From Promethearchaeota archaeon (GTDB lineage: Archaea > Asgardarchaeota > Lokiarchaeia > Sigyniarchaeales > SOKP01): a DNA stretch of 38,575 bases. How positions within the stretch are numbered: the first letter of the stretch is position 1; every line of letters starts with the position of its first letter. A program made the translations under genes and the position numbers. Under the pieces are notes generated by a model that saw only the letters and a list, made by a program, of their open reading frames with translations, ran no database searches and was not told where the DNA came from. The stretch spans positions 1 to 38,575 of the forward strand of contig RDOA01000034.1 of NCBI GenBank assembly GCA_011364925.1, written 5' to 3'. This document shows positions 6,812 through 38,575 of the stretch, in pieces.

Positions 6812-6836
6812 TTTAAAAATTTTAATTTGATATAAA

Positions 6837-8294: not shown

Positions 8295-8328
8295 ACATTT
8301 AGAATATCTGATTAATTATTGATAACAC

Positions 8329-9843: not shown

Positions 9844-9995
9844 AATAATAAATATGAGAGTCATGAATATTGGAACTTTAAGAAATTATAGTTTATTATA
9901 AAAAGCTTTAATAACATCCTATTGAAGTGATTATTTAATTCTTTTTCTAAAATAGAAGGTTATTGGATTTAATAGTTTCTTAAGGAGATAAGAAC

Positions 9996-11120: not shown

Positions 11121-11121
11121 A

Positions 11122-11982: not shown

Positions 11983-12046
11983 AAAAGATGAGAATTCCCA
12001 AAATTTTAAATATTTATTCTGGGTTATTTTACAATTAACAAAACTA

Positions 12047-13486
12047 TTGCAAGTTATCATGATATCCGCAATTATCGCACCATTAATGCTTGTTTTGGTA
12101 ATTATTTTTATTACGATAGGAAAGATGAATCGTCTTCTGGCAGCGTTTATTGGTGCAATCACAGTGGCTTTTTTCTTACTTTATGTGGATAACATTGATA
12201 TTACAATTGTAGTAGGATTTCTAATTGGAACTGATAATTCCAATCTCCAAACGATTTTATTTATTTTTGGCATGATGATGACTATTGCCGTGTGTGAAAA
12301 AAGTGGAGTATTTAGTTATATCGCATTTCGATTAGTACAAATGTCGAAAGGAAAAAGCCGTCGTATTCTTATTATCCTATGTTTTTTTACATTTATTTTC
12401 TCGTCTGTTACGATGAACATCTTATGTATTTTTTTAATTATCCCTCTTACGATTACGATTTGTAGAATTTTGAAAATAAATCCACTCCCATTTATTTTAT
12501 CAGAGGGAATGGTTGTAAATTTAGGTGGACTTCTTTTCGTTATTAGCTCAATTCCTAATTTATTGATAAGTCACGCAATTAATTGGACATTTCCAGAGTA
12601 CTTCATAGATGTAGGATTTTTTTCTATATATCTTTTTATTATTAATATTATATTCTTAACTAAATATAACGAGCGTAAGTTAGAAACTGCTGAACCCAAT
12701 TACATTAAACGCTTATTAGACTATGATCCCTGGATGTTTGTAGCGTCTAAAAAAAATTTTTATAAATCACTGGTTATCCTTCTATTAACGATTCTATCAG
12801 TAATAATACTTCCGTCATTTATTCCAATAACAATTGACATCATAGCTTTAGCCGGAGGTATCATCTCTGTCTTATTGGTTTTAGTCAAAAAATTCGATTC
12901 TATTTGGAAATCTCTCGATTTAGAATTAATTTTTTATCTATTTTGTATTTTATTTATATCTGAAGCAATTGACTTCACTGGAGTACTAAATTTCGTATCA
13001 GTGGGGATAGATTTTATAACGGGAGGTAATCCATTTAGCATTACAATTTTATTGTTATGGCTATCGAGTATCCTTAGTTCCGTAGTTCATAATGCACCAA
13101 TCACTAAAATTTTTATACCAGTTGTTCGGAATGTCTCAACGGCGCAAAATCAACGAGTCTTTTTTTCATCTTTAACAATAGGGACGGTTTTAGGAGAAAA
13201 TCTATCAGTTATGGGAGATAATCTAGTTTTAATTCTTATGGTAAGATCAAAAGGTTATAAGTTAACATTTTCTACTTTTATGAAACTTGGAATTATAACT
13301 ACTATGTTAGAATTAATAGCTTCGAGTTTTTTCTTACTCATGAAGGTAAGTATTCAATTCCTCTTTATTGGGATTATTATCTTATTAGGAATCGTTGTTC
13401 TTTTACTTCTTTCTTCTAAAATTCTCAAATGGGATAAGGTAATTAAAATAAAAAATTTAAGGAAAAACAAGCTGATCCAAAAATGA
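12047..13486 (+). CDS. IT-superfamily (ArsB/NhaD/SLC13/CitMHS-like) anion or carboxylate permease
   Basis: About 12-13 hydrophobic segments; IFGMM...SGVFSYIA, NLGG...IPN, SSVVHNAP, LGENLS. TTG start. Confidence 0.72.
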   Translation: MQVIMISAIIAPLMLVLVIIFITIGKMNRLLAAFIGAITVAFFLLYVDNIDITIVVGFLIGTDNSNLQTILFIFGMMMTIAVCEKSGVFSYIAFRLVQMSKGKSRRILIILCFFTFIFSSVTMNILCIFLIIPLTITICRILKINPLPFILSEGMVVNLGGLLFVISSIPNLLISHAINWTFPEYFIDVGFFSIYLFIINIIFLTKYNERKLETAEPNYIKRLLDYDPWMFVASKKNFYKSLVILLLTILSVIILPSFIPITIDIIALAGGIISVLLVLVKKFDSIWKSLDLELIFYLFCILFISEAIDFTGVLNFVSVGIDFITGGNPFSITILLLWLSSILSSVVHNAPITKIFIPVVRNVSTAQNQRVFFSSLTIGTVLGENLSVMGDNLVLILMVRSKGYKLTFSTFMKLGIITTMLELIASSFFLLMKVSIQFLFIGIIILLGIVVLLLLSSKILKWDKVIKIKNLRKNKLIQK

Positions 13487-13633
13487 GTTTGCTATAGAGT
13501 TGGATAGACAATCCCCCGTTATAAGGGAAAAGAATCCCTTATTAATCATGTAGGAAAAATTTTTATTAAAGTTGAGTTTACCCTTATTATATTTCTTTGA
13601 CACAACATAAAAAAACAAGAGAAAGAGAGAAAA

Positions 13634-14926
13634 TTGGCTCAAAAAAATATTTACGAGTATGATGCTAAAAGGCTCATCGCGAGCGAATTAGCAAAATATT
13701 ATCCTGAGTTTAAATACCATAACAAGCTAGCAGTGATTGACTGCGAAACAGATATAGACAAAGCAATAGCAGATAATTCTTGGATGAAAACTGAGAAAGT
13801 GGTAGTAAAACCAGATCAACTTTTTGGAAAAAGAGGTAAGGCAAATCTACTTTTGTTGGATGCTAATTGCGATGAAATGAAAGACTTTTGTTATAGTAAT
13901 TTGAATAGAGTTTGCGAAATTGGGAATGTAAGAGGTGCTTTGAAACGATTACTTGTAGAACCTTTTATCCCTCACGAAAAGGAATATTATGTCTCAATAA
14001 CGACTGAAAGAGATGGCGATGTCATCCATTTCAGCTTTGAAGGAGGTATTTTTGTAGAAGAAAATTGGGATAAAGTGGTTCATATCCCGATACCTATAGA
14101 AACAGATATTACAACCTTTGATCTTGAAGGAAAGATGCCTGATTTAGGAGACTCAAATAATATCTTGATTCCTTTTATTAAGGGGCTTTATCAAGTATTT
14201 GTGGATCAGGATTTTGCTTTTCTTGAGATTAATCCTTTTGCGATTACAGAGGACAATAAGATTGTACCCTTAGATGTTAAAGCCAGATTAGATGATACGG
14301 CTATGTTTCTTCATGCTGATACTTGGGGAAATCCAGAAAATCCAATTGAATTTCCAGCGGGATTCGGTCAAGAGTTGAGTCTCGAAGAGGTGAGGATAAA
14401 AGAATTAGATGAAAAAACGGGTGCTTCTCTTAAACTTACTATATTAAACCGAGAGGGAAATGTATGGACAATGGTTGCAGGGGGAGGTGCATCAGTTGTA
14501 TACACGGATACAATTGCAGATCTTGGATTTTCAGAAGAATTGGGTAATTATGGAGAATATAGTGGAAATCCTAGCCAAGAGCATACAGAAATATATGCCC
14601 AGACTTTGATTGACCTCATCACCAAAGCACCTAATCTTAAAGGAAAAGAGAAATTCCTTATTATCGGTGGGGGAATTGCCAACTTTACTGACGTTAAAGC
14701 TACGTTTGCGGGGATTGTTAGTGCAATTAAAAAATCAGCCGATAAATTAAAGCAAGCTAATGTTAAAATATTCGTGCGCAGGGGTGGTCCTAACGAGAAA
14801 CAAGGTTTAGAGCTGATGAGACAGACGGGAGAAGAGACGGGGATACCTATTGAAATTTACGATCGCTATAGTAGTATGACGCGTCCAGTAGCAAGAATGA
14901 TAGAAGAAATACGGGGTGAGAAATGA
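13634..14926 (+). CDS. aclB: ATP-citrate lyase, ATP-grasp/citrate-binding subunit
   Basis: IYEYDAK, VVKPDQLFGKRGK, GASLKLTILN, WTMVAGGGASVVY, NYGEYSG, IGGGIANFTDV, RRGGPN. Confidence 0.95.
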   Translation: MAQKNIYEYDAKRLIASELAKYYPEFKYHNKLAVIDCETDIDKAIADNSWMKTEKVVVKPDQLFGKRGKANLLLLDANCDEMKDFCYSNLNRVCEIGNVRGALKRLLVEPFIPHEKEYYVSITTERDGDVIHFSFEGGIFVEENWDKVVHIPIPIETDITTFDLEGKMPDLGDSNNILIPFIKGLYQVFVDQDFAFLEINPFAITEDNKIVPLDVKARLDDTAMFLHADTWGNPENPIEFPAGFGQELSLEEVRIKELDEKTGASLKLTILNREGNVWTMVAGGGASVVYTDTIADLGFSEELGNYGEYSGNPSQEHTEIYAQTLIDLITKAPNLKGKEKFLIIGGGIANFTDVKATFAGIVSAIKKSADKLKQANVKIFVRRGGPNEKQGLELMRQTGEETGIPIEIYDRYSSMTRPVARMIEEIRGEK

Positions 14927-16762
14927 ATGGAAAGCTATGAATTATTTAACTCGGATACCCAGGCGATAATTTACGGATTTCAAGCAAATCCCGTTCAAAG
15001 AATGCTTGATTTTGATTACATTTGCAAACGGAAGAAGCCATCCGTTGCTGCGATGATTAGACCGACTCAAGAAGCTGCGATAGCGTATCATAAAGTGTTT
15101 TGGGGGAGTAAAGAAATTGTTATTCCAATTTATAAAACGCTACAAATGGCAGTTAAAAAACATCCTAGTGCGGATGTTATGATAAATTTTGCTTCTTTTC
15201 GATCTGCTTACGATACGAGTAAAGAAGCTCTTGAAACGGATACAATTCGCGTAGTAGTTATAATTGCTGAGGGTGTTCCTGAAAGACAAAGTAGAATTCT
15301 ACTTAAAATTGCCGAAGAAAGAAACAAGGTCATCATAGGCCCTGCAACTGTAGGTGGTATAAAAGCAGGGGCATTCAAGATTGCAAATACAGCTGGTACT
15401 CTTGAAAATATCCTGCTTTCAAAATTATATCGTCCTGGTTCAGTAGGTTTTGTGTCTAAATCGGGCGGTTTAAGTAACGAAATGAATTTTATGATTGCAC
15501 AAACTACGGATGGAGTTTACGAATCGATTGCTATTGGAGGAGATCGCTATCCCGGCTCAAGGCTGATCGATCATCTCTTACGCTATGAAGCGAACCCCAA
15601 TATTAAAATGCTAGTGTGTTTAGGAGAAATCGGTGGAACAGAAGAGTATGAAATCGTTGACACGTTAAAGAATGGCAAGATTACCAAGCCAATTGCGATT
15701 TGGGTGACTGGAACCGCAGCTAAAATCCTTCCCAAAGGCCTACAATTTGGACACGCAGGTGCCATGGCTGGCAGTTCAAAAGAAACAGCAGAAGCTAAAA
15801 ATCAAGCTCTTAAAGAAGCAGGAGCGTTAGTTCCTGAATCGTACGAAGATTTTGATAAATTAATTAAAGAAACTTACGAAAAATTAGTACAGGAAGGCAA
15901 AATTAAACCTGCGAAAGAAGAAGAACCTCCAAAGATTCCTACGGATTTTAATGAGGCTGTAAGATTAGGTTTAGTTAGAAGACCTACTGATGTAGTAGTT
16001 ACTGTTAGTGACGATCGGGGTGATGTCCCGACATTCGCTGGAGTCGGATTAGACAACATCGTAAGAGAGAACCGCTCCATCGGTTACGTAATTGGACTTC
16101 TATGGTTCAAGAGAGAGTTACCTGAGTTTGCTCAACAATTTATTGAAATGGTGATTAAATTAACTGCCGATCATGGTCCAGCAGTATCAGGAGCGCACAA
16201 TGCAATCATTACTGCTCGAGCAGGCAAAGATCTTATGTCGGCTTTGGCAAGTGGAATATTAACCATCGGTCCGAGATTTGGAGGTGCAATATCAGATGCA
16301 GCGAAATACATTCGGGAAGCACTACAGAAGGGAATGAATCCCCCAGAATTTATAAAGTATATGAAGGATGTCGTTCAAATTAATATTCCCGGTATAGGAC
16401 ATCGTATAAAATCAGTTCAAAATCCAGATGTGAGAGTATTATTACTCAAAGAATTTGTTTTCAAAAACTTCAAGAAGCACCCGCATTTAGATTTTGCTCT
16501 TGAAGTAGAAAAACTCACAACTTCTAAAAGGAATAATCTGATACTCAATGTTGACGGGTGTATTGGAATTACATTTTTAGATCTTTTAGAGAATCTAGAT
16601 TTTACCTCAGAAGAAATTGAAGATGTAATTTATAGCGAAGCATTAAATGGGTTATTTGTGCTTGGTAGATCAATTGGGATGATGGGGCACATTTTTGACC
16701 AAAAACGACAACGAGCTGGTCTCTATCGACAACCGTGGGACGAGATTTTATTTAGTGAATAA
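14927..16762 (+). CDS. aclA: ATP-citrate lyase, CoA-binding/phospho-His plus citryl-CoA lyase subunit
   Basis: QRMLDFDY, NFASFRSA, IAEGVPE, GPATVGG, IGGDRYPGS, QFGHAGA, ADHGPAVSGAHN, GPRFGGA, GIGHRIKS, NLILNVDG. Confidence 0.96.
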   Translation: MESYELFNSDTQAIIYGFQANPVQRMLDFDYICKRKKPSVAAMIRPTQEAAIAYHKVFWGSKEIVIPIYKTLQMAVKKHPSADVMINFASFRSAYDTSKEALETDTIRVVVIIAEGVPERQSRILLKIAEERNKVIIGPATVGGIKAGAFKIANTAGTLENILLSKLYRPGSVGFVSKSGGLSNEMNFMIAQTTDGVYESIAIGGDRYPGSRLIDHLLRYEANPNIKMLVCLGEIGGTEEYEIVDTLKNGKITKPIAIWVTGTAAKILPKGLQFGHAGAMAGSSKETAEAKNQALKEAGALVPESYEDFDKLIKETYEKLVQEGKIKPAKEEEPPKIPTDFNEAVRLGLVRRPTDVVVTVSDDRGDVPTFAGVGLDNIVRENRSIGYVIGLLWFKRELPEFAQQFIEMVIKLTADHGPAVSGAHNAIITARAGKDLMSALASGILTIGPRFGGAISDAAKYIREALQKGMNPPEFIKYMKDVVQINIPGIGHRIKSVQNPDVRVLLLKEFVFKNFKKHPHLDFALEVEKLTTSKRNNLILNVDGCIGITFLDLLENLDFTSEEIEDVIYSEALNGLFVLGRSIGMMGHIFDQKRQRAGLYRQPWDEILFSE

Positions 16763-16766
16763 TCAA

Positions 16767-16775
16767 TTTTTTTTT
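16767..16775 (+). terminator. Oligo-T tract after aclA, possible archaeal-type terminator
   Basis: T9 run a few nt after the aclA stop. Confidence 0.35.
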
Positions 16776-16863
16776 AGTTTAACTAATCTATAATAGTAAA
16801 TTTTAAGATAGAATGATAATTTAGAACTAGACTAGAAACAAACAGAACGTATGGTTGTAAAAA

Positions 16864-18069
16864 ATGGAAAATGTTGTTAGAAATGCAAAAGAACATTTTG
16901 AAAAACTTGTAACTGAACAATTAGCAAGAATAGAGCGAATGAAAAAAGCAGAGGATTGGGTAGATTATTCTACACTAAAACCTCTTATAATTGGAGTAGC
17001 TCCTGGTGATGGAATCGGTCCAGAGATCACAAAACATGCAGATACGATCCTAAAATTCCTATTGGAAGATGAAGTTCAAAAAGGGAAGATAGAATTCAGA
17101 GACATCGAAGGTTTAACCATAGAGAATAGAGCAAAATTAATGAAAGCTATTCCGGACGAAAGCTTAGAGCAGTTAAAGAAGTGCCATGTTATATTAAAGG
17201 GTCCTACGCACACTCCAAGCTCAGCAGATTTAGCCTCGGGGAAATGGCCAAATCTCGAAAGTGCAAATGTTTCAATGAGAAGAGAACTAGACTTATTTGC
17301 CAATGTTCGTCCAGTGAAGGTACCAGAACAAGGAATTGATTGGATCTTTTTTCGAGAAAATACCGAAGGAGCTTATGTATTGGGTTCAAGGGGTATTAGA
17401 GTTACTGATGACTTAGCCTTTGACTTTTGCGTACATACGAAACAAGGAACAGATCGCATCTTAAGATTAGCTTTTGATTACGCGAAAAAGACAGGACTAA
17501 ATAGAGTTTCACTAGTCACTAAAGCTAATGTAGTTAAAACGACAGATGGAATGTACTTAAACATGGCAAAAGAGATTGCAAAGAATGAATATCCAGAAAT
17601 AAAATTCGATGATTGGTATATTGATATTATGGCCGCAAAATTAATTGACCCAGCACGACAATCAGAGTTTAAAGTTTTCGTTGCACCGAATTTATACGGA
17701 GATATAATTACCGATGAAGCTGCTCAGATTCAAGGTTCTGTTGGCACCGCTGGAAGCGCAAATATAGGGAAACGATATGCTATGTTCGAAGCAATTCATG
17801 GGACTGCTCCTAGAATGGTAGAAACAGGTAGAATTCAATATGCCGACCCAACGAGTATAATAAAGGCTTCAGCTATGCTTTTAAATCATATTGGGTTTGT
17901 AGATAAGGCTAAGAAGCTAGAGATGGCTTTAGACGTATGTGCCATCTATGAAAAGAAACTAGTTATAACAGGCAGAGATACCGGAGTTACAGGAGAAGAA
18001 TATGCGAAGTATATCATGGAAACAATTAAAGATCCAAACTTGGAAGCGAAGTGGAAAAGTTATCAATAA
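16864..18069 (+). CDS. icd: Isocitrate/isopropylmalate dehydrogenase family; probably isocitrate dehydrogenase
   Basis: PGDGIGPE, LKGP, SANVSMRR (S-x-N-xxx-R of isocitrate-type enzymes), RENTEG, KAN, NLYGDIITD, FEAIHGTAP; adjacent to acl and suc genes. Confidence 0.78.
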   Translation: MENVVRNAKEHFEKLVTEQLARIERMKKAEDWVDYSTLKPLIIGVAPGDGIGPEITKHADTILKFLLEDEVQKGKIEFRDIEGLTIENRAKLMKAIPDESLEQLKKCHVILKGPTHTPSSADLASGKWPNLESANVSMRRELDLFANVRPVKVPEQGIDWIFFRENTEGAYVLGSRGIRVTDDLAFDFCVHTKQGTDRILRLAFDYAKKTGLNRVSLVTKANVVKTTDGMYLNMAKEIAKNEYPEIKFDDWYIDIMAAKLIDPARQSEFKVFVAPNLYGDIITDEAAQIQGSVGTAGSANIGKRYAMFEAIHGTAPRMVETGRIQYADPTSIIKASAMLLNHIGFVDKAKKLEMALDVCAIYEKKLVITGRDTGVTGEEYAKYIMETIKDPNLEAKWKSYQ

Positions 18070-27759: not shown

Positions 27760-28641
27760 ATGCCAAGAGTTAAGGTAAATAATATAGAGATTGAATATGA
27801 GACAACTGGAGATTCAACATCAAAACCGTTATTGTTGATCACAGGACTGGGAGGTCAATTACTTGCTTGGTCTGACGAAATGTGTGAAAATCTCGTAAAG
27901 AAAGGCTTTTTCGTTATCAAATTTGACAATAGAGATGTTGGATTGTCGACTAAAATTGAAGATGCGGGTGTACCAAATATGATGGAGATTAGTGCTGCTT
28001 ATACCCGCGGCGAAATGCCCAAAGTTCCATATACTTTAGAGGACATGGCTGATGATGCTATTGGTCTTTTAGATGCTCTGAACATTGATAAAGCCCATAT
28101 TTGTGGAGCTTCGATGGGTGGCATGATCGCACAAATTATAGGATATCGACACCCCTCTCGAGTAAGTTCTCTCATAATAATTATGAGTACAACTGGAAAT
28201 CCGGAATTACCACCGTCAAAACCTGAAGTCATGATGGAATTCTTTGCTCCCATTCCATCAGAACGTGAAGCTTATATTGATGAAATGGTAAAGCGTGATA
28301 GTCTCATTAACGGAACATTTACTTATGATAAAGATCAAGGAAGAGATTACAGGACTAAAGAATACGACAGATGTTATTATCCAGATGGGATAGTGCGCCA
28401 ATTGGCAGCAATGGCGATACCAGGTAATATTAAACCTTTTATATCCGCAATTTCCGCTCCTACCATTGTGATTCATGGAAGTGAAGATCCTTTTAATCTT
28501 ATAGAAGCGGGTAAAGAGATCGCAGCAACCATACCAAATGCTGAATTATTGATTATTGAAGGAATGGGGCATAGTTTTCCTCGAGAGATATTTCACCAGA
28601 TATTAGAAGCTATAGATTTGAATACTAAGAAAGCTATATAA
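27760..28641 (+). CDS. Alpha/beta-hydrolase
   Basis: FDNRDVGLS, YTLEDMADD, GASMGG, HGSED, GMGH. Confidence 0.9.
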   Translation: MPRVKVNNIEIEYETTGDSTSKPLLLITGLGGQLLAWSDEMCENLVKKGFFVIKFDNRDVGLSTKIEDAGVPNMMEISAAYTRGEMPKVPYTLEDMADDAIGLLDALNIDKAHICGASMGGMIAQIIGYRHPSRVSSLIIIMSTTGNPELPPSKPEVMMEFFAPIPSEREAYIDEMVKRDSLINGTFTYDKDQGRDYRTKEYDRCYYPDGIVRQLAAMAIPGNIKPFISAISAPTIVIHGSEDPFNLIEAGKEIAATIPNAELLIIEGMGHSFPREIFHQILEAIDLNTKKAI

Positions 28642-28858: not shown

Positions 28859-30202
28859 ATGCGAAAAAAAGTTATTATTATTGGCGCCTTAGGAATGGAT
28901 TTTCACTTATATAATACAGTATTTCGAGATAATGATGAATACGAGGTTATCGCATTCACGATCGCTGGAGAACAAAATGTAGGGACTATAGAAGAAGAGG
29001 AAAGGAAGTTTCCAGCAGAATTGGCTGGTAAATTATACCCTAACGGCATTCCAATGGTTTCAGAGGATTTACTTGAGGAAATGATCAAAAAGTATGCTGT
29101 TGATGAGGTAATCTTTGCTTACTCCGATGTATCTCACGAAGAGGTTATGCATAAAGCAAGTAGAGCCTTATCTGCAGGTGCTAATTATCGTTTAATTTCA
29201 GGGCGATTCACACAAATTAAGGCAAATAAACCAGTAATAGCTGTGTGTGCTGTAAGAACGGGATGCGGAAAAAGCCAAGTATCTAGAGCTGTTTATCGAT
29301 ATTTGAAGAAAAAAGGTATAAAAGTTATAGCCATAAGAGAACCAATGCCTTATGGAGATTTAGTTCAACAAAATGTAATGCGATTTGAAACCTACGATGA
29401 TCTAGATAAATACGATTGTACAATTGAAGAAAGAGAAGAGTATGAGCCCTATATACGACAGGGATTAGTAATTTATTCGGGAGTAGATTACGAGAAGATT
29501 ATTCGAGAAGCGGAGAAAGAAGCAGATATGATCGTATTTGATGGCGGTAATAACGAGATTTCATTTTACATCACGGATCTTCTTTTTGTAGTTGTAGATC
29601 CATTACGTCCGGGGCATGAAGTAAAATATCACCCTGGGGAAGTTAATGCGCGATATGCTGATGTGTTTGTTATTAACAAGATGAATAGTGCCAAACCCGA
29701 AGATGTGAAAATAGTAGAGAATAATTTAGATCTGCTAAATCCTAAAGCGATAAAAGTTTTTACAAATTCTACTGTTACAGCAGATAATCCTCTTAAAATG
29801 AAAGGAAAGAAGGTTATTGTAGTGGAAGATGGCCCAACTTTGACGCATGGCGGGATGGCTATCGGAGCTGGATATGTCGCTGCTAAAAATGCTGGAGCTA
29901 AAATTATAGATCCAAAACCTTTTCTTGTAGGGACCATGAAAGAGGTTTTTAAAGAATTTCCACAAATTACACAGATAGTCCCAGCTATGGGTTATAACGA
30001 TCAGCAGATTAAGGACATGGAAGATACTCTCAACAAAGCTGAATGCGAATATATAATCGATGGGAGCCCAATCGATCTCGAAAAATTAATTGATAGCAAT
30101 AAACCTATTATTAGAGTTGCATACGATATCGAAGCTATATCAAATCCAACTATAGAAGAAGTTCTTGATGAATTTATAGAAAAACATCTAAAACAAAATT
30201 AG
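28859..30202 (+). CDS. arcE: cDPG-synthetase-like P-loop ligase; arginine synthetase (ArcE) family, divergent
   Basis: LAGKLYPNGIP, FAYSDVSH, AVRTGCGKS (P-loop), PMPYGDL, CTIEEREEYEP, GVDY, DGGNN, EDGPTLTHGGM, PAMGY; OTC lies in the same locus. Confidence 0.75.
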   Translation: MRKKVIIIGALGMDFHLYNTVFRDNDEYEVIAFTIAGEQNVGTIEEEERKFPAELAGKLYPNGIPMVSEDLLEEMIKKYAVDEVIFAYSDVSHEEVMHKASRALSAGANYRLISGRFTQIKANKPVIAVCAVRTGCGKSQVSRAVYRYLKKKGIKVIAIREPMPYGDLVQQNVMRFETYDDLDKYDCTIEEREEYEPYIRQGLVIYSGVDYEKIIREAEKEADMIVFDGGNNEISFYITDLLFVVVDPLRPGHEVKYHPGEVNARYADVFVINKMNSAKPEDVKIVENNLDLLNPKAIKVFTNSTVTADNPLKMKGKKVIVVEDGPTLTHGGMAIGAGYVAAKNAGAKIIDPKPFLVGTMKEVFKEFPQITQIVPAMGYNDQQIKDMEDTLNKAECEYIIDGSPIDLEKLIDSNKPIIRVAYDIEAISNPTIEEVLDEFIEKHLKQN

Positions 30203-30214
30203 CCTACCAGAAAA

Positions 30215-30778
30215 ATGGAAAAAACCCAAATATTAATTGCTTATGGCACTCGTTATGGAGCGACCGCTGGTACCGCAGAAGAAATTTCTAAAGTTCTTCA
30301 GGGTGAAGGATTTGAATTAAAAGTCGTAAATCTCAAAGAAGAGAAAGTCAAGGACATCTCAAATTTTGATCTTATTATTATTGGGAACGGGATGAAAATG
30401 GAAATGTGGACAAGTAATGTTAAAGCATTTCTGAAAAAGTTTAGTAATGAGCTCAAAGAAAAGAAAGTGGCAATTTTCGTATCTTCAGGCGGGCGGGCGC
30501 TCATGGAATATAAAGGAGAAAATGATGAAATTGAAAGAATAACTAAAAAATACCTTGAAGATAAAGCTACTAAATACGATTTGAATCCAATCTCGATGAT
30601 CATGTTTGGAGGTATCTGGGATTATAATCAGATGGGTAAAATTTATAGAAAATTCTTAGACGCAGAAAAAGAAAATTTTATCCCGGCAGGATTTAAAGAA
30701 ACAGAGCCAGGAGTATACGATTCAAGAAATTGGGATGAGATACATAAATGGGCTAAAGAATTAGCTAATACGATTTAA
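30215..30778 (+). CDS. Flavodoxin-domain protein (HemG-like)
   Basis: LIAYGTRYGAT...AEEI FMN loop, FGG, YDSRNWDEI..WA. Confidence 0.82.
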   Translation: MEKTQILIAYGTRYGATAGTAEEISKVLQGEGFELKVVNLKEEKVKDISNFDLIIIGNGMKMEMWTSNVKAFLKKFSNELKEKKVAIFVSSGGRALMEYKGENDEIERITKKYLEDKATKYDLNPISMIMFGGIWDYNQMGKIYRKFLDAEKENFIPAGFKETEPGVYDSRNWDEIHKWAKELANTI

Positions 30779-30883
30779 AAAACTCTTTTAAGATTAGAAG
30801 AACTTTTTTTTTTATTCAAAGAAATGTTTATATAATCAAAAAACATAATTGTAATTGTGCAATTTTGAAGAGGTTGAGAAAGT

Positions 30884-31291
30884 TTGGATGATTCAACAAT
30901 TATTAAAATCAAAAACCACCTATCTGACAGATTAGAAGAGATTAAAAATGGGACATACATTCCGTACTACGATAGATTTAAAGAATTGCCGGAATTCAGA
31001 GGAATCGACAAGAAAACTTTTGAAATCGCCCGAAGGGAGTGGTATAAACAAAATCTTCCTAAGGATAAATTTAAGTTTCCTTTTATTGTGGCTAAAAAGC
31101 GAATAAAGAGGTCACTTACTAAGGGATATTGTTGGTTAATTATAGGAGTGATAGTCACTATACTTGGCTTTTGGACTGGGGTAGAGGGTAGTTGGTCTGG
31201 TGGAGCTGAGACCTTTTTAATAATAGCCGGCATAATTCTACTGGTTTTTGGAATTATAAGCCTATTATACAATAGGTTCAAAAAGTCTTAA
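30884..31291 (+). CDS. Hypothetical membrane protein with two C-terminal TM helices
   Basis: 135-aa ORF with TTG start preceded by GAGGT. Confidence 0.6.
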   Translation: MDDSTIIKIKNHLSDRLEEIKNGTYIPYYDRFKELPEFRGIDKKTFEIARREWYKQNLPKDKFKFPFIVAKKRIKRSLTKGYCWLIIGVIVTILGFWTGVEGSWSGGAETFLIIAGIILLVFGIISLLYNRFKKS

Positions 31292-31298
31292 TGAAAAA

Positions 31299-31448
31299 TG
31301 TGAAGTAATTATTGATGGGAGCCCGATAGACCTTGAAAAATTGATTAATAGTAATCACCCTATTGTCAGAGTCTCGTACGATATCGAAGCTATTAAAAGC
31401 CCAACAATAGAAGAAACATTACTTAAAAATCGTTTAAATAATATTTAA
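31299..31448 (+). pseudogene. Orphan 3'-end fragment of arcE (diverged direct repeat of 30044-30160)
   Basis: CEVIIDGSPIDLEKLINSNHPIVRVSYDIEAIKSPTIEE vs CEYIIDGSPIDLEKLIDSNKPIIRVAYDIEAISNPTIEE: 32/39 aa and 91/117 nt identical by hand. No in-frame start; stop at 31446-31448. Confidence 0.9.
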
Positions 31449-31528
31449 TTCTAAAGTCTCATTAAATCAACCATAGTTTAAAGTCATGTTTTTAATATTA
31501 TAATCATAATTCAATTGAGTGAAAATCT

Positions 31529-33709
31529 ATGGTTTTAGCAGAGATGAAATATGAACTCCACGAAGTTCGAAAAGGGTATACTAACAGAACTCTCTACATT
31601 AATCTCTCCAATAATAATATTCAGATAAAGCCCGTAACCGATGGAATGAAAGAAAATTTTATTGGAGGCAAAGGGTTTGACCTCTGGCTTATGTGGAATG
31701 GACTCCCACAAGATAAAATAGTTAAATGGAACGATCCTGAAAATGAAATATGTATCTCTTCAGGACCATTAGGAGGGAACATCTTTTATCCAGGATCTGG
31801 AAAGTCTATTGTTACTACCATTTCTCCCTTAACGGATATTGTAGTAGATTCGAATGTAGGTGGATATTTCGGTCCTTATTTGAAATTCTCTGGATTTGAT
31901 GCCATCGAAATTCAAGGAAAAGCAGAAAAAGAAGTCATTGTATATATCAATGGCGTTGGTGGGATTGTTCAAATCAAACAAGTGGAAGAATCACAAGAAT
32001 TGTCTAAATATTCTCACGAACTTACTCAACAACTTACCGAGCAATACGCTCAAGACGACCGTGAAAAACAACGAGTTTCGATAGTAAGCACTGGTCCTGC
32101 CGCAAAACACACGAATTGGGGGCTCCTAAATTTCTCATGGTATGTTCCTGGTCGAAAATGGGCGTCAAGTAAGCAAGCCGGAAGAGGGGGAATTGGCACC
32201 GTTTTTGCAGATAAGAATATAAAAGCATTAGTCTGTCGATCTCCTAAAGTTTCCGTTAGCTCAAATAATCCTGCTAATTTAGAAGAAGCAAGAAAAATAG
32301 GAATCGCACACACGCAAGAAATAATTAAACTTGATCCTGTTCAGAACGAAATGCGTAGAGTTGGAACAGGTCATCTTCCAGACATCATGAATGTTACCGA
32401 CCTCCTACCCACAGAAAATTTCCGTTTTGGAGCTCATAGAGAAATTCGAGGGAAAGAGATCCCATACAATAGGGAAATTATGAGAGGGATATATTCTGGA
32501 AAAGAAGGCGCGGATGGATGCTGGATTGGATGCACAGTCAGCTGTTCTCACTATTCGGAAGAGTATGAAGTCCGGACAGGTCCTTTTAAAGGCCAAAAGC
32601 TAATCGTCGATGGTCCAGAATACGAAACCATTGCTGGATGCGGTTCAAATTGGGGTGTGTGGGATCCTCAGTGGGTTCTAGAAGTAAATTTCTATTGTGA
32701 CACTTATGGTATAGATACTATCTCAGTTGGTACGGGAATTGCGTTTGTCATGGAGTGTTTTGAAGCTGATATCTTAAATAAGAAAATAACTGGAGGATTA
32801 GAGTTAAATTTTGGCAATGCAGAAGCTGCAGTTGAGTTAATTCACCAAATGGCTAAAGGAGAAGGCTTTGGCGTTATCGTGGGAAAAGGTATAAAATATA
32901 TGAAGAAATATTTCATTGATAATTATGGAGCAGATCCACAATTTATTCAAGACATCGGAATGGAGCACAAAGGCTTAGAATTTTCTGAATATGTGACAAA
33001 AGAATCTCTAGCTCAACAGGGAGGATATGGATTAACGAATAAAGGGCCACAACATGACGAGGCTTGGCTTATATTCGACGATGTCATCCGAAACTCGATT
33101 CCAACCTTTAAGGATAAAGCTAGAGCACTGCAATATTTCCCTTTATGGCGAACTTGGTTTGGTTTGTGTGGTTTATGTAAATTGCCTTGGAACGACATTC
33201 AACCCGAGAGTCAAGCTGATTATCCCATAACCGATCCAAACACAGGAGAGCTAGTTCGCGCTAAAATTCCCGACCATGTAAAGTGGTACACAGAATACTT
33301 CTCGGCAGTGACGGGAAGGGAATCTACAACAGAAGATCTAATTTTGATGTCTGAAAGAGTTTATAATTTTCAACGGATATTTAACATCAGATTAGGTAAA
33401 GGTCTTCGGGAACACGATTCTAATTTACCTTATAGAGCCGTTGGACCAGTTACTCCTTTAGAATACGAGAGTAGGGTCGAACGATACGATGAACAGTTAA
33501 AAGCAATGAATATAGATGTTTCAGATAAATCTACTGAAGAAAAAATCAAAATCCTTCGAAAGCATAGAGAAGAACAGTACGAAAAACTCCAAGATGCTGT
33601 ATATTTGGAACGAGGTTGGAAGAAAAACGGTTGTCCTTCAATAGCGACAGTAAAAAGATTAGGAATTGATTTTCATAAGATAATCGATATTATTGCTCCG
33701 TATCAATAA
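31529..33709 (+). CDS. aor: W/Mo aldehyde:ferredoxin oxidoreductase family protein
   Basis: FIGGKG, GPL, SPLT...SNVGG.FGP.LK.SGFD, AGRGGIG...K, CWIGCTVSC, GPEYET, CDTYGIDTIS, RGW..NG.P. Confidence 0.92.
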   Translation: MVLAEMKYELHEVRKGYTNRTLYINLSNNNIQIKPVTDGMKENFIGGKGFDLWLMWNGLPQDKIVKWNDPENEICISSGPLGGNIFYPGSGKSIVTTISPLTDIVVDSNVGGYFGPYLKFSGFDAIEIQGKAEKEVIVYINGVGGIVQIKQVEESQELSKYSHELTQQLTEQYAQDDREKQRVSIVSTGPAAKHTNWGLLNFSWYVPGRKWASSKQAGRGGIGTVFADKNIKALVCRSPKVSVSSNNPANLEEARKIGIAHTQEIIKLDPVQNEMRRVGTGHLPDIMNVTDLLPTENFRFGAHREIRGKEIPYNREIMRGIYSGKEGADGCWIGCTVSCSHYSEEYEVRTGPFKGQKLIVDGPEYETIAGCGSNWGVWDPQWVLEVNFYCDTYGIDTISVGTGIAFVMECFEADILNKKITGGLELNFGNAEAAVELIHQMAKGEGFGVIVGKGIKYMKKYFIDNYGADPQFIQDIGMEHKGLEFSEYVTKESLAQQGGYGLTNKGPQHDEAWLIFDDVIRNSIPTFKDKARALQYFPLWRTWFGLCGLCKLPWNDIQPESQADYPITDPNTGELVRAKIPDHVKWYTEYFSAVTGRESTTEDLILMSERVYNFQRIFNIRLGKGLREHDSNLPYRAVGPVTPLEYESRVERYDEQLKAMNIDVSDKSTEEKIKILRKHREEQYEKLQDAVYLERGWKKNGCPSIATVKRLGIDFHKIIDIIAPYQ

Positions 33710-33735
33710 CAACTATTGTTTAGACCTGATTATTA

Positions 33736-35820
33736 ATGGAAAACATTACTAAACACCCAATTTTGGACATTCCTGATAGAAAAAAGATAGAATTCAGCTT
33801 TGATGGAACGATTCTGTACGGATTTGAAGGAATGGTTATATCTTCTGCTTTATTTTTAAATAAAATAAAAGTTTTTGGTCATCATACCAAAGATCACAGC
33901 CCCCAGGGAATTTTTTGTGCGAACGGACAGTGTTCTCAGTGTAATGTAATCGCTGACGGAATACCGGTCAAAGCGTGTATGACACCGCTCAGAGAGGGTA
34001 TGACGATTAAAAGTTGTAATGGTTTACCAGAGATACCTGCTGATGATGTTCAACCTGAGATAAAGGATATTGATATTACTAGTACTGATGTATTAGTGAT
34101 AGGTGGTGGTCCCGCGGGGCTATCTGCTACTAAGATATTAGGAGAAAATAAAATTGATGTTGTTTTAGTTGATGATAAATCTACATTAGGGGGAAAATTA
34201 GTTCTCCAAACGCATAAATTTTTTGGTTCGCAAGAAGATGTATACGCAGGTACACGAGGCGTCGAGATAGGTAAAATACTCGGAAATATCGTGTCTAATC
34301 TTGAAACGGTAAAAATTTGGCTCGATAGTATAGCAGTTGCCGTATTTAGCGATGGTTTAGTAGGTATTATTAAAGACATGGACGAGTATGCTTTAATTAA
34401 ACCAAACTACTTATTAATTACTACAGGCGCAAGAGAAAAAATGTTAGTGTTTCCTGGAAATACGCTCCCTGGAGTATATGGTGCTGGTGCCTTTCAAACC
34501 TTAGTAAATAGAGATTTAGTTAAAGCAGCAGAAAATATTTTTATTGTGGGAGGAGGCAATGTTGGTTTAATAGCAGGATATCACGCGATTCAAGCAGGAA
34601 TAAACGTTGTAGGATTAGTCGAGGCTTTATCGCAATGTGGAGGGTATAAGGTTCACGAAGACAAATTAAAACGGTTAGGCGTTCCAATCTATACGAATCA
34701 TACCGTAATATCCGCCAATGGTCAAAATAAGTTAGAATCAATCACAATAGGTAAGTTAACGGACAGCTGGGAGATCGAACCAGGTTCAGAAAAAACATTC
34801 GCGTGTGATACTCTATTGATAGCTGTCGGACTAAATCCTGTCGACGAGTTTTACCATAAAGCGCAACAATTTAATATGAAAGTGTGGATTGCGGGTGACG
34901 CCCAAGAAATTGCTGAGGCTTCTGCGGCAATCTTTACCGGTAAAATTGAAGCGTTAAAAATCTTAAAGGAGATTGGAGTTTCAATGGCGGAAGATCTAGA
35001 AGAATTAGAAGATTTCGCTAATTTGATGAAAGCAAAACCTCCAGATCCTGTTCAAGTTGAGACTCCAGAAAAGGAAGAAGGTTTATTCCCACTTTTTCAC
35101 TGTAATCAAGAAATCCCGTGCAACCCTTGTACCACTGTGTGTCCACAACATCAAATCAAGACAGTTGACGATCTGATTACTCAATTACCATATTTCACCG
35201 ACGATGAAGACTGTATAGGCTGCGGAAAATGCGTAGCTGTTTGTCCCGGTTTAGCCATAACTTTGGTTGATTATAGAAAAGATAAAAATAACCCAATCGT
35301 TACTTTTCCTTTAGAATTAACTTCAGAAAAGATAGAAGTTGGTCGAAAAGTCATGGTTGTTAGCAATGATGGTGAATTAGGAGAGTTTGAGGTTGCGAGA
35401 GCGCGTTTTCTCAAAGAATTTCCAAAAACTCAATTAGTCTCAGTCAAACTACCTTCTGACATAGCAAAAGTAGCAGTTGGTATTAAACTTACAAAATCCA
35501 GTTACACCGAACCTATGGATCTTTATCAGCAATCCTATACCGATGACGATATAATAGTGTGTAGGTGTGAGAGAGTCTCGGTAGGAGAGATTCGCAAGTG
35601 GATTCAATATGGAGTGCATGATTTTAACGAACTGAAAGCGTTAACTAAAATTGGAATGGGTGCTTGCGGAGGGAAAACTTGTACTCCTTTAATTAATAGA
35701 ATTTTTAAAGAAGAAGGAGTCGTATCAGAAAATATTGTCCCGGGTACGAAACGACCTCTTTTTGTGGAAGTTCCAATGGGAGCTTTTGCAGGGCTAAAAG
35801 CTAAGAAAGGAGGTAATTAA
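33736..35820 (+). CDS. Fused Fe-S flavoprotein (2Fe-2S / FAD-NAD(P) Rossmann / 2x4Fe-4S / BFD-like); dye-linked proline dehydrogenase or sarcosine oxidase alpha-like
   Basis: GIFCANGQCSQC, IGGGPAG, VGGGNVG, CNQEIPCNPCTTVCP, CIGCGKCVAVCP, VCRCE...GMGACGGKTC. Confidence 0.88.
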   Translation: MENITKHPILDIPDRKKIEFSFDGTILYGFEGMVISSALFLNKIKVFGHHTKDHSPQGIFCANGQCSQCNVIADGIPVKACMTPLREGMTIKSCNGLPEIPADDVQPEIKDIDITSTDVLVIGGGPAGLSATKILGENKIDVVLVDDKSTLGGKLVLQTHKFFGSQEDVYAGTRGVEIGKILGNIVSNLETVKIWLDSIAVAVFSDGLVGIIKDMDEYALIKPNYLLITTGAREKMLVFPGNTLPGVYGAGAFQTLVNRDLVKAAENIFIVGGGNVGLIAGYHAIQAGINVVGLVEALSQCGGYKVHEDKLKRLGVPIYTNHTVISANGQNKLESITIGKLTDSWEIEPGSEKTFACDTLLIAVGLNPVDEFYHKAQQFNMKVWIAGDAQEIAEASAAIFTGKIEALKILKEIGVSMAEDLEELEDFANLMKAKPPDPVQVETPEKEEGLFPLFHCNQEIPCNPCTTVCPQHQIKTVDDLITQLPYFTDDEDCIGCGKCVAVCPGLAITLVDYRKDKNNPIVTFPLELTSEKIEVGRKVMVVSNDGELGEFEVARARFLKEFPKTQLVSVKLPSDIAKVAVGIKLTKSSYTEPMDLYQQSYTDDDIIVCRCERVSVGEIRKWIQYGVHDFNELKALTKIGMGACGGKTCTPLINRIFKEEGVVSENIVPGTKRPLFVEVPMGAFAGLKAKKGGN

Positions 35821-35822
35821 TC

Positions 35823-36989
35823 TTGGTGGAATACGATGTTATCATTATAGGAGCTGGAAGTGTGGGTGTTCCCACCGCGTTAGCTACGGCGAAAAACGGA
35901 CTTAAAACGCTCGTTGTTGATAGTTTACCTTCTGTTGCGCAAGGCGATAACAAGCACGCTATTGGAGGAATACGAGCAACACATTCTGTTAAAAGTAAAA
36001 TATGGTTATGCCAGCGCTCCATCGATATTTTCTCTTCTTGGAAGGATACATATGGAGACGATATCTGGTGGGAGCAAGGTGGCTACTGTTTCCTAGCGTT
36101 CACTGACCAAGACGAGCAAATATTAAGAAATACTGTTCGACAACAAAAAGAATATGGATTAAACATTAATTATATTGGTCCCAAGAGAATAAAAGAGTTG
36201 ATTCCGGGAATAGATAATACGAATTTAAAAGGTGGTACTTTTAGTCCTGAAGATGGAAATTCGTCTCCACTATTAGCTCTTCACGCATTTTTTCGAAAAT
36301 CAAAAGAATTTGGAGCAAGTTATACGTTTAATGAAAGCGTTATGAGTATTAAGACACATAATAAAGAAATAACAGGTGTAAAGACTAATAAATCAGAATA
36401 TAAAGCTCAAACTATTATTAATGCTGCTGGAGCACAAGCAAAAAATATTGGAAAAATGGTTAATATCGATTTACATGTCGCTCCGGAAAGCCATGAAGCG
36501 GGAATTACTGAACCCGTCAAAAAGTTCTTTTCTACGATGGTAGTTGATATCAAACCAGCAACAGATAAGAAGTTTGGGAATTCTAAAAATTACTACTTCT
36601 ATCAAAATAAGGAGGGAAAGATCATCTTTTGTTTAACCCCAGATCCTAACTTTCCCGGTCTTGATCGCTCCGAAACTAGCTCGTTCTTGCCTCAAATCAC
36701 TAAAAGGATGGTCAGATTACTTCCAAGATTAAAAAGTGTTAAGATAAGGAGAACTTGGAGGGGGCTTTACCCTATGACTCCAGATGGAAATCCTATAATT
36801 GGAAGAGTAGACGAGATCGCAGGGTTCATAAATGCTGTTGGTATGTGTGGACAAGGATTTATGCTCGGACCGGGACTTGGTGAACTTCTTTGTCGAATAA
36901 TTACAGAAAAGCTAACTTCGAAAGATCTTCAGATGTTGGAGGAACTTGCCTACGGTCGTAATTATTATAAAATAGAAGATTTAAAGTAA
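35823..36989 (+). CDS. FAD-dependent amino-acid oxidoreductase (DAO family; proline dehydrogenase or sarcosine oxidase beta-like)
   Basis: IIGAGSVG, INAAGA, RTWRGLYPMTPDGNPIIG, GQGFMLGPG; AGGAGGT-like SD upstream. Confidence 0.88.
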   Translation: MVEYDVIIIGAGSVGVPTALATAKNGLKTLVVDSLPSVAQGDNKHAIGGIRATHSVKSKIWLCQRSIDIFSSWKDTYGDDIWWEQGGYCFLAFTDQDEQILRNTVRQQKEYGLNINYIGPKRIKELIPGIDNTNLKGGTFSPEDGNSSPLLALHAFFRKSKEFGASYTFNESVMSIKTHNKEITGVKTNKSEYKAQTIINAAGAQAKNIGKMVNIDLHVAPESHEAGITEPVKKFFSTMVVDIKPATDKKFGNSKNYYFYQNKEGKIIFCLTPDPNFPGLDRSETSSFLPQITKRMVRLLPRLKSVKIRRTWRGLYPMTPDGNPIIGRVDEIAGFINAVGMCGQGFMLGPGLGELLCRIITEKLTSKDLQMLEELAYGRNYYKIEDLK

Positions 36990-37081
36990 AAAATATAAAG
37001 CATAATCTGATATAATCCTTAACAAATCTAAATTAGCTATGTATTCTTTTAAAAAATAAAAATAGATAAATTGATGGAAAA

Positions 37082-38014
37082 ATGGTTCGACATTTATTGA
37101 AAATTTCTGATTTAACTAAAGCAGAAATTGAGAAGATAATAGATAAATCTATAGAACTTAAAAATAATCCACAGAAATTTACATCAGCGCTTGAAGGAGA
37201 AACGCTCTTAATGATTTTTGAGAAACCTTCTTTGAGAACGAGAATCTCGTTCGAAGTAGGTATGCAACAATTAGGAGGTCACGCAATATTCTATTCTATA
37301 AAGGACGCACCACTTGGAAGGAAGGAGAACATTCAAGACACTGCAAAGGCTGCGTCAAGGTATATTAGCTTAATGGCAGCGCGCTTGTATAAACGACATG
37401 ATATGTGGGATTTAGCAAAATACTCAGACGTTCCAGTTATTAATATGCTCGACGATTTTGCGCATCCCTGTCAAATGATGGGAGATTTCTTAACTATAAA
37501 AGAGAAAATAGGAAGGTTAGAGCGGTTTAAAATGAGTTATTTTGGAGACGCTCATAACAATGTAACCTACGATCTGATGAGGATCTGTGCGATGTTTGGA
37601 TTGGAGTTAGATGTTGCTTGTCCTGCCGGAAAAGAATACACTCCAGAACAAATTGTTCTCGACGAAGTGGCTCAAATTTCAGAAGGAACCGGAGCATATA
37701 TCAACATTCTTCACGACGCTTATAACGCTGCGAGAGATTCTGATATTGTATATACAGATTCGTGGATGTCGTATGGCATTCCTGTAGAACAAGAAGAAGA
37801 ACGACGTAAAATTTTTACACCATTCCAAGTCAATTCACAACTGATGGAAACTGCCAAACCGGATGCAATTTTTATGAATTGTTTACCTGCAAAGCGAGGT
37901 TATGAACAAACTGCTGAAGTAATTGATGGACCTAAATCTTTTGTGTTCGATCAAGCAGAAAACAGACTCTACAGTCAAAAAGCAATAATGCTTTTCTTAC
38001 GAGATAAGTTTTAA
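37082..38014 (+). CDS. arcB: Ornithine carbamoyltransferase, probably catabolic
   Basis: FEKPSLRTR, HPCQ, GD..NNV, YTDSWMSYG, FMNCLPA, QAENRL. Confidence 0.9.
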   Translation: MVRHLLKISDLTKAEIEKIIDKSIELKNNPQKFTSALEGETLLMIFEKPSLRTRISFEVGMQQLGGHAIFYSIKDAPLGRKENIQDTAKAASRYISLMAARLYKRHDMWDLAKYSDVPVINMLDDFAHPCQMMGDFLTIKEKIGRLERFKMSYFGDAHNNVTYDLMRICAMFGLELDVACPAGKEYTPEQIVLDEVAQISEGTGAYINILHDAYNAARDSDIVYTDSWMSYGIPVEQEEERRKIFTPFQVNSQLMETAKPDAIFMNCLPAKRGYEQTAEVIDGPKSFVFDQAENRLYSQKAIMLFLRDKF

Positions 38015-38134: not shown

Positions 38135-38575
38135 ATGTCATCTTTTAACTATCCTCCTCCACAAATTATAGAGGATTCCTTTGGAAAAAAAAATTATGAG
38201 CAGATAATTTTATGGACGTTATACAACAACGAACAATGTGAGTGGGCAGTGTTTCTTCAAGAACCACTTGAAATACCAATGTCTACATTATCGCGACACT
38301 TAAATCAGCTACAAAGTGAAGGTCACATTATTAAGATATCGAAGGGACTCTATGAAATAACTCCAGAAGGTCGTAGAAGATTTCATAACTTATCTACAAC
38401 GAAAGAAAGGAAAAGAAAGATAAATTACCCTCCAGATATTATTCTAAAAAAGCGAAATTATACCCATTGGATATTGTGGATGGTTTATAATAACACATTT
38501 TGTAAATGGGTTGACTTTTTAAGTGAACCTCTCTCAATTAATCAATCTTCTTTATCGAAAGCAATAAATCAACTG
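38135..38575 (+). CDS. Tandem winged-helix repeat protein, N-terminal part; runs off the window
   Basis: Manual translation MSSFNYPPPQII...NYEQIILWTLYNN..C.W..FL.EPL.I..STLSRHLNQL...G...YEITPEG, then the unit repeats (NYPPDII...NYTHWILWMVYNN..C.W..FL.EPL.I..SSLS). Open to the edge. Confidence 0.8.
   Translation, partial: MSSFNYPPPQIIEDSFGKKNYEQIILWTLYNNEQCEWAVFLQEPLEIPMSTLSRHLNQLQSEGHIIKISKGLYEITPEGRRRFHNLSTTKERKRKINYPPDIILKKRNYTHWILWMVYNNTFCKWVDFLSEPLSINQSSLSKAINQL

Follow-up and report, generated by a model that had tools for sequence, protein, structure and literature searches.

Introduction

The described routes from ornithine and proline to glutamate, by way of RocD and RocA/PutBC in Bacillus or by way of PutA, join at 1-pyrroline-5-carboxylate (P5C)/glutamate-5-semialdehyde, which is then oxidised with NAD+. 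The Thermococcales possess PDH2, a four-subunit dye-linked L-proline dehydrogenase (PDH). In Thermococcus kodakarensis, the arginine pathway consists of ArcE (TK2200), ArcB (TK0871) and ArcC (TK2158) (PMC11032458, PMC13260591), and TK2200 converts Arg + ADP + Pi to citrulline + NH3 + ATP (PMC11032458). Here we describe a related gene cluster from a Promethearchaeota archaeon. The stretch of DNA that was analysed, referred to as the window, has a length of 38,575 nucleotides and is the whole of contig RDOA01000034.1 (C43 in our numbering) of a 3.9-Mb genome (G000; completeness 100%, contamination 4.2%); the closest relatives of the contig are Promethearchaeia (Loki). It encodes an ArcE-family enzyme, a tungsten-type aldehyde:ferredoxin oxidoreductase (AOR/WOR), a two-gene flavo-dehydrogenase and an ornithine carbamoyltransferase (OTC). 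The best explanation as a whole, to which we assign a probability of about 0.58, is that these genes form the core of an anaerobic catabolon leading from arginine and proline to glutamate.

Like the T. kodakarensis pathway, the proposed one comprises an ArcE-family enzyme, an OTC and a carbamate kinase, does without arginine deiminase and has ornithine aminotransferase downstream. Here, however, the genes are clustered with those of a WOR and a flavo-dehydrogenase, which points to glutamate rather than proline; moreover, the ArcE is divergent, the OTC is of the Giardia type and carbamoyl phosphate synthetase (CPS) is present. As in the RocA/PutBC and PutA routes, ornithine and proline would meet at P5C/semialdehyde and proceed to glutamate, but oxidation of the aldehyde would depend on a W/Mo-pterin enzyme, with ferredoxin instead of NAD+, and that of proline on a PDH2-type Fe-S flavoprotein in place of PutB. 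The parts come from known families and the route as predicted follows known chemistry; what would be new is a role at the semialdehyde step for a WOR clade that has had none assigned, together with an ArcE subfamily of divergent sequence.

Organisation and conservation of the gene cluster

The initial annotation of this DNA had described five co-oriented genes, and all five open reading frames (ORFs) were confirmed on the + strand: arcE (28859..30202, 447 aa), wor (31529..33709, 726 aa), the gene of a fused flavoprotein subunit (33736..35820, 694 aa), that of a catalytic beta subunit of the DAO family (35823..36989, 388 aa, TTG start) and otc (37082..38014, 310 aa). The last four are separated by gaps of 26, 2 and 92 nt, as had been noted. 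A neighbourhood survey showed the arcE-wor-flavoprotein-otc-arcC block to be kept across Asgard relatives. Among 17 Asgard loci, wor is followed by the fused flavoprotein gene in 13, and otc (12), arcE (10), arcC (10) and a reversed rocD (8) recur. A compact seven-gene form, arcE-wor-pdhA-pdhB-otc-arcC with reversed rocD, was seen in four loci (L004, L126, L127 and L129), and in L128 rocD is co-oriented and directly 3' of arcE-otc-arcC. In one Asgard family (f1), arcE, wor and the beta gene occur together in 14 of 29 genomes and none of the three occurs in 6. Since the block is conserved in relatives, it is not a product of chance; the full operon was seen only in two Promethearchaeales families, and WOR alone in other Asgard groups.

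Carbamate kinase and ornithine aminotransferase indeed lie outside the window, as first reported, but both are encoded in the genome and belong to the same cluster in relatives. The two genes are found on contig C65 (arcC at 6635-7549, rocD at 9023-10282), score above their family cut-offs and retain the relative arrangement seen in relatives. The ends of C43 and C65 were not found to overlap, and otc is followed at 38135-38575 by a gene for a truncated winged-helix (HTH) protein, of which the genome encodes at least five paralogs, 640-990 aa long. As the ends do not overlap and an unrelated multi-copy gene follows otc, the cluster appears to be split in this genome; judged from the contig, the truncated gene takes the place of arcC and marks the rearrangement point. 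The genome yielded no match to arginine deiminase (PF02274), which supports the arginine route without deiminase proposed in the initial annotation.

The aldehyde:ferredoxin oxidoreductase

The WOR contains AFOR_N and AFOR_C domains (PF02730, E 2e-47; PF01314, E 4e-91), and its structural model has the AOR fold (Foldseek to 1AOR, E 1e-30, TM 0.84 by target). The residues of the W-site second shell (T280, E366, Y488 and H509) and C331/335/339/550 are each kept in at least 120 of 121 clade members. All 121 members share, without exception, a FOR-like C-[KR]-L-P-W motif and an Arg upstream of it (R541, K551), which are absent from the 15 paralogs in the genome, which encodes 16 WORs. We take the equivalents of R541 and K551 in formaldehyde ferredoxin oxidoreductase (FOR) to bind the distal carboxylate of glutarate. 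Glutarate is bound in the Pyrococcus furiosus FOR, which has been proposed to oxidise glutaric semialdehyde (PMC12096430), and the residue set of aldehyde-oxidising enzymes is represented in PfAOR by T243, E313, Y427, H448 and four 4Fe-4S cysteines (PMC13328260). The window WOR thus resembles P. furiosus FOR (1B25/1B4N) and AOR (1AOR) in fold, second-shell residues and 4Fe-4S ligands, and FOR also in its HxEAW and C-[KR]-LPW motifs, but it is only ~24% identical to them by structural alignment, is ~110 residues longer and falls in a separate clade.

Proteins of this clade (~720 aa; 549 candidates) share 55-60% identity across archaea and bacteria and form one branch (SH-aLRT 100). Nested in the same branch is Fervidicella AZQP01000067 (L066), a listed member of WOR clade 7 (numbering after Schut 2021 / Putumbaka 2026) that is 57% identical to the window WOR. 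On this phylogeny, from which clades 1-6 were left out so that the edge of clade 7 is approximate, the window AOR belongs to clade 7. The clade has no characterised member, a physiological role having been defined for 5 of 92 WOR clades, and no amino-acid semialdehyde pathway has been linked to any characterised WOR (PMC13328260). Proline, ornithine and semialdehyde are absent from the main text of the 2026 WOR survey (PMC13328260), and in the searched literature, which left out most subscription journals, we met with no assignment of glutamate semialdehyde to a WOR.

The gene neighbours of clade-7 WORs in other lineages vary between sub-branches. In Desulfobacterota, the gene lies beside a fused PDH-like pair, with proC in some loci. 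In Clostridia, it lies beside a split canonical PDH (beta E 5e-92 to 1Y56_B) and a sodium symporter gene, and one such operon is located behind PrdR (811 > 795 bits). A second copy in Anaerosolibacter carboniphilus is found beside HypD and its activase (above cut-off), proBA adjoins clade-7 WOR, with proAB(C) in the Anaerosolibacter WOR loci, and in Desulfosporosinus the neighbours are genes for glutamate dehydrogenase (GDH)-like and 2-oxoacid:acceptor oxidoreductase proteins. In nine Anaerolineae loci, RocD or a PH1423-type ornithine aminotransferase, the latter acting on ornithine and lysine (PMC9986279), is encoded directly 3' of WOR. In an evenly drawn Clostridia sample, 16 of the 19 loci fetched had PDH (12), proC (3) or rocA (1) directly adjacent. 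At L181:6030-10792, rocA, the only one in 250 Clostridia genomes, stands head-to-head with the genes of a small Fe-S subunit and a clade-7 WOR. The same partners appear in the published clade-7 neighbourhood table, which for Bacteroidetes includes P5C dehydrogenase. Owing to common ancestry, the loci of our survey represent fewer independent events than their number, yet they are spread over several separate sub-branches. Since the neighbours converge on one metabolite, glutamate-5-semialdehyde is indicated as the substrate, and it is quite probable that the clade-7 WOR is a glutamate-5-semialdehyde:ferredoxin oxidoreductase. The semialdehyde-to-glutamate step that the initial annotation had given to the AOR is thereby supported.

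The distribution of RocA was also determined. It was found in none of the 151 Asgard genomes searched, 48 of which have RocD and 34 PDH-like pairs, and 49 of 50 WOR-bearing genomes had no RocA above cut-off. Among 201 Anaerolineae genomes, 60 have the WOR, 25 have RocA and 1 has both, against 7.5 expected (Fisher p 0.0018, uncorrected for kinship), in a test that scored RocA only and left out other P5C dehydrogenase types. As 20 of the 25 RocA-bearing genomes have other WORs, this exclusion does not simply reflect an absence of WORs.

The flavoprotein pair

The 694-aa chain unites the alpha, ferredoxin, delta and BFD parts of a PDH2/HcnAB-type flavo-dehydrogenase. It contains 2Fe-2S, FAD/NAD, 2x4Fe-4S and BFD 2Fe-2S domains (Pfam) and is collinear with four split small genes of the clostridial operons; its second Rossmann motif and E296 are invariant. 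The best PDB match of the beta subunit is 1Y56_B (E 7.5e-55 vs <=1e-18 for sarcosine oxidases), the beta subunit of Pyrococcus horikoshii PDH1, and the equivalents of PDH His225 and Tyr251 are kept. In these respects, and in its alpha/ferredoxin/delta/beta parts, the pair resembles the Thermococcales dye-linked L-proline dehydrogenases (PDH1, 1Y56), but its three non-catalytic parts are joined in one chain and its beta motifs are altered. Bacterial WORs beside a split PDH have a small Fe-S subunit of their own and those beside the fused chain do not, which fits a sharing of the fused ferredoxin domain between the two enzymes.

Databases label the fused pair as 'sarcosine oxidase'. A heterotetrameric sarcosine oxidase was considered and rejected: the soxA/soxB models scored 153 and 98 bits against cut-offs of 1164 and 529, and of the alpha subunit, which has 965 aa, the match spans no more than the first ~380 residues. 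In sarcosine oxidases a Lys binds the carboxylate, and beta has a Met at that site.

Where loci lack arc genes, the pair travels with other genes of proline metabolism. In Desulfobacterota its neighbours are proC, a second DAO gene and one of the cyclodeaminase family, and in two other Asgard families a PutB-type proline dehydrogenase is encoded 3-5 kb from it (L163:4069-4995, L164:2102-3025 and L170:3335-4261). Because of this company of proC, cyclodeaminase-family and PutB-type genes, we favour, at somewhat better than even odds, oxidation of L-proline to P5C by the fused pair. The initial annotation had made the flavoprotein the source of semialdehyde, acting on ornithine or by way of proline; entry of proline is the more likely of these, and ornithine would most likely pass through RocD instead. 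The substrates assumed there are also less secure, as the beta subunit is of a divergent subfamily.

ArcE and OTC

The ArcE-family P-loop enzyme is the sole full copy in the genome and is a member of a divergent, 'R13-less' subfamily. Its model (pLDDT 92) is closest in fold to cyclic 2,3-diphosphoglycerate synthetase (8ORU, 8ORK) and to LpxK (4EHY), and LpxK has also been reported as a structural neighbour of TK2200 (PMC11032458). The Walker A motif is intact, with R133, G135, G137, K138 and S139 invariant. Homolog searches gave mainly Asgard proteins, and the enzyme shares 50-56% identity with most ArcEs of the majority type from other Asgards. In every cluster-linked copy, R13, N17, the QIP loop, H161, W227 and D233 are replaced. 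Among representatives at 50% identity, most keep R13, N17 and H161 (R in 106 and H in 117 of 150 rows), and 119/119 close homologs have them replaced. The substitutions map to loops that follow strands 1 and 2 of the N-terminal domain and the strand at 156-160.

The arcE gene is accompanied by arcB/arcC, and arcA is absent. In a separate archaeon, an R13-less ArcE gene is head-to-head with an OTC gene (L155:8957-11347). R13-less ArcEs were also found on eukaryote-like contigs with tetraspanin or WW-domain genes (L153, L159, L162; P0162), three of them next to carbamate kinase, and a relative is present in the ichthyosporean Creolimax fragrantissima. With all columns included, the R13-less group has an SH-aLRT of 99; after removal of the motif columns, 19 of 20 rows still group (85/99, not starred), with Creolimax unplaced, in a tree that left out 22 long or near-identical rows and from which we claim no donor or order of events. 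Since the subfamily is constantly linked to OTC and ArcC, arginine is its likeliest substrate, and probably the true one. The initial annotation had assumed this substrate from Thermococcus, an assumption made less secure by the divergence of the subfamily.

OTC scored 360.6 against TIGR00658 (cut-off 280.85). Its best PDB match is the Giardia OTC 3GRF (E 9e-93, vs 4e-84 for the Pyrococcus OTC), with which it shares the unusual DSWMSY and MNCLP motifs. A putrescine carbamoyltransferase was rejected, the model score of 279.8 falling under the cut-off of 500. Family cut-offs and motifs therefore uphold OTC and carbamate kinase as true partners of the route.

Genome context and remaining features of the window

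Neither a RocA-type dehydrogenase nor argG, argC, proA/proB or PutB was found in this genome, which does carry CPS, proC and HypD. The catabolic direction is favoured, since argG, argC and proA/proB are missing and arcC is present. HypD, a trans-4-hydroxy-L-proline dehydratase and a further source of P5C, scored above cut-off at L198:3463-5838 (G000 C93:6462-8837). Two further candidates were rejected: a gene on C51 resembles ornithine cyclodeaminase at family level only and falls below all cut-offs, and an arginase-family gene on C20 scores as agmatinase. The genome also has an operon for a TupA-like ABC transporter (L196; G000 C46:29395-33964; 181 vs cut-off 400), located directly 5' of moaC/moaA/moaD-like genes.

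The relic of an arcE 3' end noted before aor in the initial annotation is real. It extends over ~50 codons (31297..31448, +), and 31297-31415 match the end of arcE (30042-30160) at 93/119 nt (78%, E 8e-25); at the protein level, 47 residues match at 74% (E 1e-13). The relic lacks an in-frame start, and its stop (31446-31448) is 80 nt 5' of the aor start. The relic is 84% identical in nucleotides to the arcE end of a close relative (L001), to which the intact gene is 80% identical. Intact ArcE itself appears to be a mosaic, with aa 1-350 closest to L009 and the last ~100 aa closest to L001/L002. The relic would be the scar of a duplication or gene replacement, recombinational replacement of arcE being the simplest account. 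At L017:16267-17017, partial duplicates of otc and the beta gene lie within the operon and are, like the relic, a sign of frequent local recombination.

Two genes stand between arcE and the relic, the distance from arcE to aor being 1.3 kb. One, on the + strand at 30215..30778, encodes a flavodoxin-domain (HemG-like) protein (PF12724, E 8e-17); it is a variable insert, and a flavodoxin gene upstream of wor occurs in seven relatives (L001-L003, L006, L008, L010 and L016). The other (30884..31291, +) encodes a 135-aa membrane protein without a Pfam or NCBIfam match; it has one paralog, on C101, and was not seen at the same place in relatives. A non-coding stretch of ~95 nt 5' of wor (31434..31528, +) is conserved at 82-97% nucleotide identity in the same seven relatives, so that wor probably has a promoter of its own. 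A scan for sigma-70 promoters and terminators, which is ill-suited to archaea, gave no more sites than shuffled sequences (39 vs 33.8).

The route had been suggested to feed a '2-oxoglutarate/SCS cluster' in the window, a link that found no support here: the cluster (9996-18069), 11 kb away, consists of genes for succinyl-CoA synthetase (SCS) beta/alpha, a CitMHS-family (citrate) transporter, a two-subunit ATP-citrate lyase and isocitrate dehydrogenase, and the scan of window ORFs revealed no gene for GDH or a 2-oxoglutarate oxidoreductase. ATP-citrate lyase genes are also present upstream of arcE in L001 and L017. Elsewhere in the window, three paralogous PGA_cap (CapA-like metallophosphatase) genes for proteins of 485-504 aa stand in tandem (5105-9843), and a 770-aa protein combines a caspase (C14) domain with bacterial TSP3 repeats (2393-4705). 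An alpha/beta hydrolase (27760-28641) matched macrolide esterase models best in NCBIfam, with every score far under its cut-off.

Discussion

In the proposed route, ArcE would form citrulline, NH3 and ATP from Arg, ADP and Pi, as shown for TK2200. OTC would split citrulline into ornithine and carbamoyl phosphate, from which ArcC would generate a second ATP, both steps being well supported by family cut-offs. RocD, assigned above its family cut-off, would convert ornithine to glutamate-5-semialdehyde/P5C, to which the fused pair would add P5C from L-proline, and HypD P5C from hydroxyproline. The clade-7 WOR would then oxidise the semialdehyde to glutamate and reduce ferredoxin, replacing the NAD-dependent RocA/PutA step. 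In sum, arginine would yield 2 ATP along with glutamate and reduced ferredoxin, and neither arginine deiminase nor a P5C dehydrogenase dependent on NAD would take part.

The proline/P5C couple, at about -0.12 V, cannot reduce NAD+ alone. The aldehyde couple is near -0.5 V (PMC13328260). Given this difference it may be speculated that the two steps are coupled, the fused Fe-S/FAD subunit letting WOR-reduced ferredoxin drive the uphill oxidation of proline with NAD+. Such electron confurcation would account for the close linkage of the genes. A scheme that combines a dedicated clade-7 semialdehyde oxidoreductase, confurcating proline oxidation and an ArcE subfamily common to Promethearchaeales and some eukaryotes is, taken together, unlikely.

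Several findings weigh against the assignments made above. RocD and WOR are not associated in Anaerolineae (RocD in 29/60 genomes with WOR vs 60/141 without), most WOR loci of that group have no marker gene nearby, and no marker was found at 20 WOR loci from other Asgard groups. Asgard family f7 has WOR in 28 of 32 genomes and, at the thresholds applied, neither RocD nor such a beta; the same holds for genera g3 and g6, and family f14 has RocD without WOR. The pocket region of the WOR model (480-516) has a pLDDT < 50, and its geometry is too uncertain to use. The beta subunit is only ~33% identical to clostridial beta; the canonical motifs RCGxGIRQQ, HQ and GHGFM, kept in the clostridial proteins, read HAIGGIRAT, HE and GQGFM in the window, and the PutB-type neighbour in three Asgard loci may mean that the fused pair has a different substrate. 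Finally, the majority ArcE motifs GAAGRDFHN, RHPM and WDGGNND, which TK2200 presumably carries, are replaced by GALGMDFHL, REPM and FDGGNNE.

These departures leave room for other readings. If the flavoprotein oxidised the delta-amine of ornithine directly, arcE-wor-pdhAB-otc-arcC would be self-contained, and RocD and ProC would serve proline synthesis as in Thermococcus, where the ornithine aminotransferase of T. kodakarensis has this role (PMC11032458). The differences of beta from canonical proline dehydrogenase motifs, including an extra Glu after the conserved His, a rocD on the opposite strand and the presence of proC are in keeping with this. We find it rather improbable, as the fused pair sits with proC, a second DAO and a cyclodeaminase-family gene in Desulfobacterota loci devoid of arc genes, a PutB-type gene is near it in three Asgard loci, H225/Y251 are kept and the rocD of L128 directly follows arcE-otc-arcC in the same orientation; since RocD is in the cluster, direct oxidation of ornithine is possible but not needed. 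In a reversed flow, the WOR and/or the flavoprotein would work reductively, from glutamate to semialdehyde for proline (ProC) and ornithine/arginine synthesis (RocD, OTC, CPS, ArcE), or P5C would be dismutated to glutamate and proline. AORs are reversible, WOR directly adjoins proC in several loci, and this genome has CPS and proC and lacks argG, argC and proAB; a biosynthetic ArcE has been proposed for genomes with CPS and without argininosuccinate enzymes (PMC11032458). Such a flow is nonetheless quite improbable in view of the arcC in the cluster and of the catabolic importers, PrdR and HypD of the bacterial loci, and the Anaerosolibacter WOR loci also have proAB(C), so that WOR is not needed for synthesis there.

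The WOR could also be a broader omega-semialdehyde or general aldehyde oxidoreductase, acting for example on 2-aminoadipate semialdehyde from lysine, or part of a module for creatine, sarcosine or formaldehyde, its position being opportunistic. Stand-alone WOR copies are many, two divergent clostridial copies have unrelated neighbours, the databases' label for the pair would agree, and PH1423-type aminotransferases also use lysine (PMC9986279). Against this, HypD, PrdR, proC, proBA and rocA have in common a specificity for the C5 proline series, the soxA/soxB scores and the Met of beta speak against sarcosine, and four other WOR paralogs of this genome (a small control) have no such marker within 8 kb; we hold this breadth of substrate to be no less doubtful than reductive flow. 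Compatible with the WOR as a semialdehyde enzyme, but itself unlikely, is the use by R13-less ArcE of another guanidino compound, such as agmatine, methylated arginine or homoarginine. It draws on the replacement of R13, N17 and H161 in all 119 close homologs and on the location of the changes on the three loops; its partner is nevertheless a true OTC, OTC or carbamate kinase is the neighbour in every context-readable lineage but one, and the genome, which lacks arginine deiminase, has no other ArcE.

If arginine and proline are indeed degraded to glutamate in this way, the clade-7 enzyme would be the first WOR placed in a named amino-acid pathway. It would fill the missing step in Asgard genomes that have RocD and PDH-like pairs and no RocA, and would offer a source of low-potential ferredoxin suited to hydrogen-producing, syntrophic amino-acid degraders. 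As the same operon is present in the cultured bacteria Anaerosolibacter carboniphilus DSM 103526 and Wukongibacter baidiensis, direct testing is possible. The divergent ArcE, being common to eukaryote-like contigs, suggests a two-ATP arginine route in some protists, and would be a starting point for tracing how arginine catabolism arose in the anaerobic ones.

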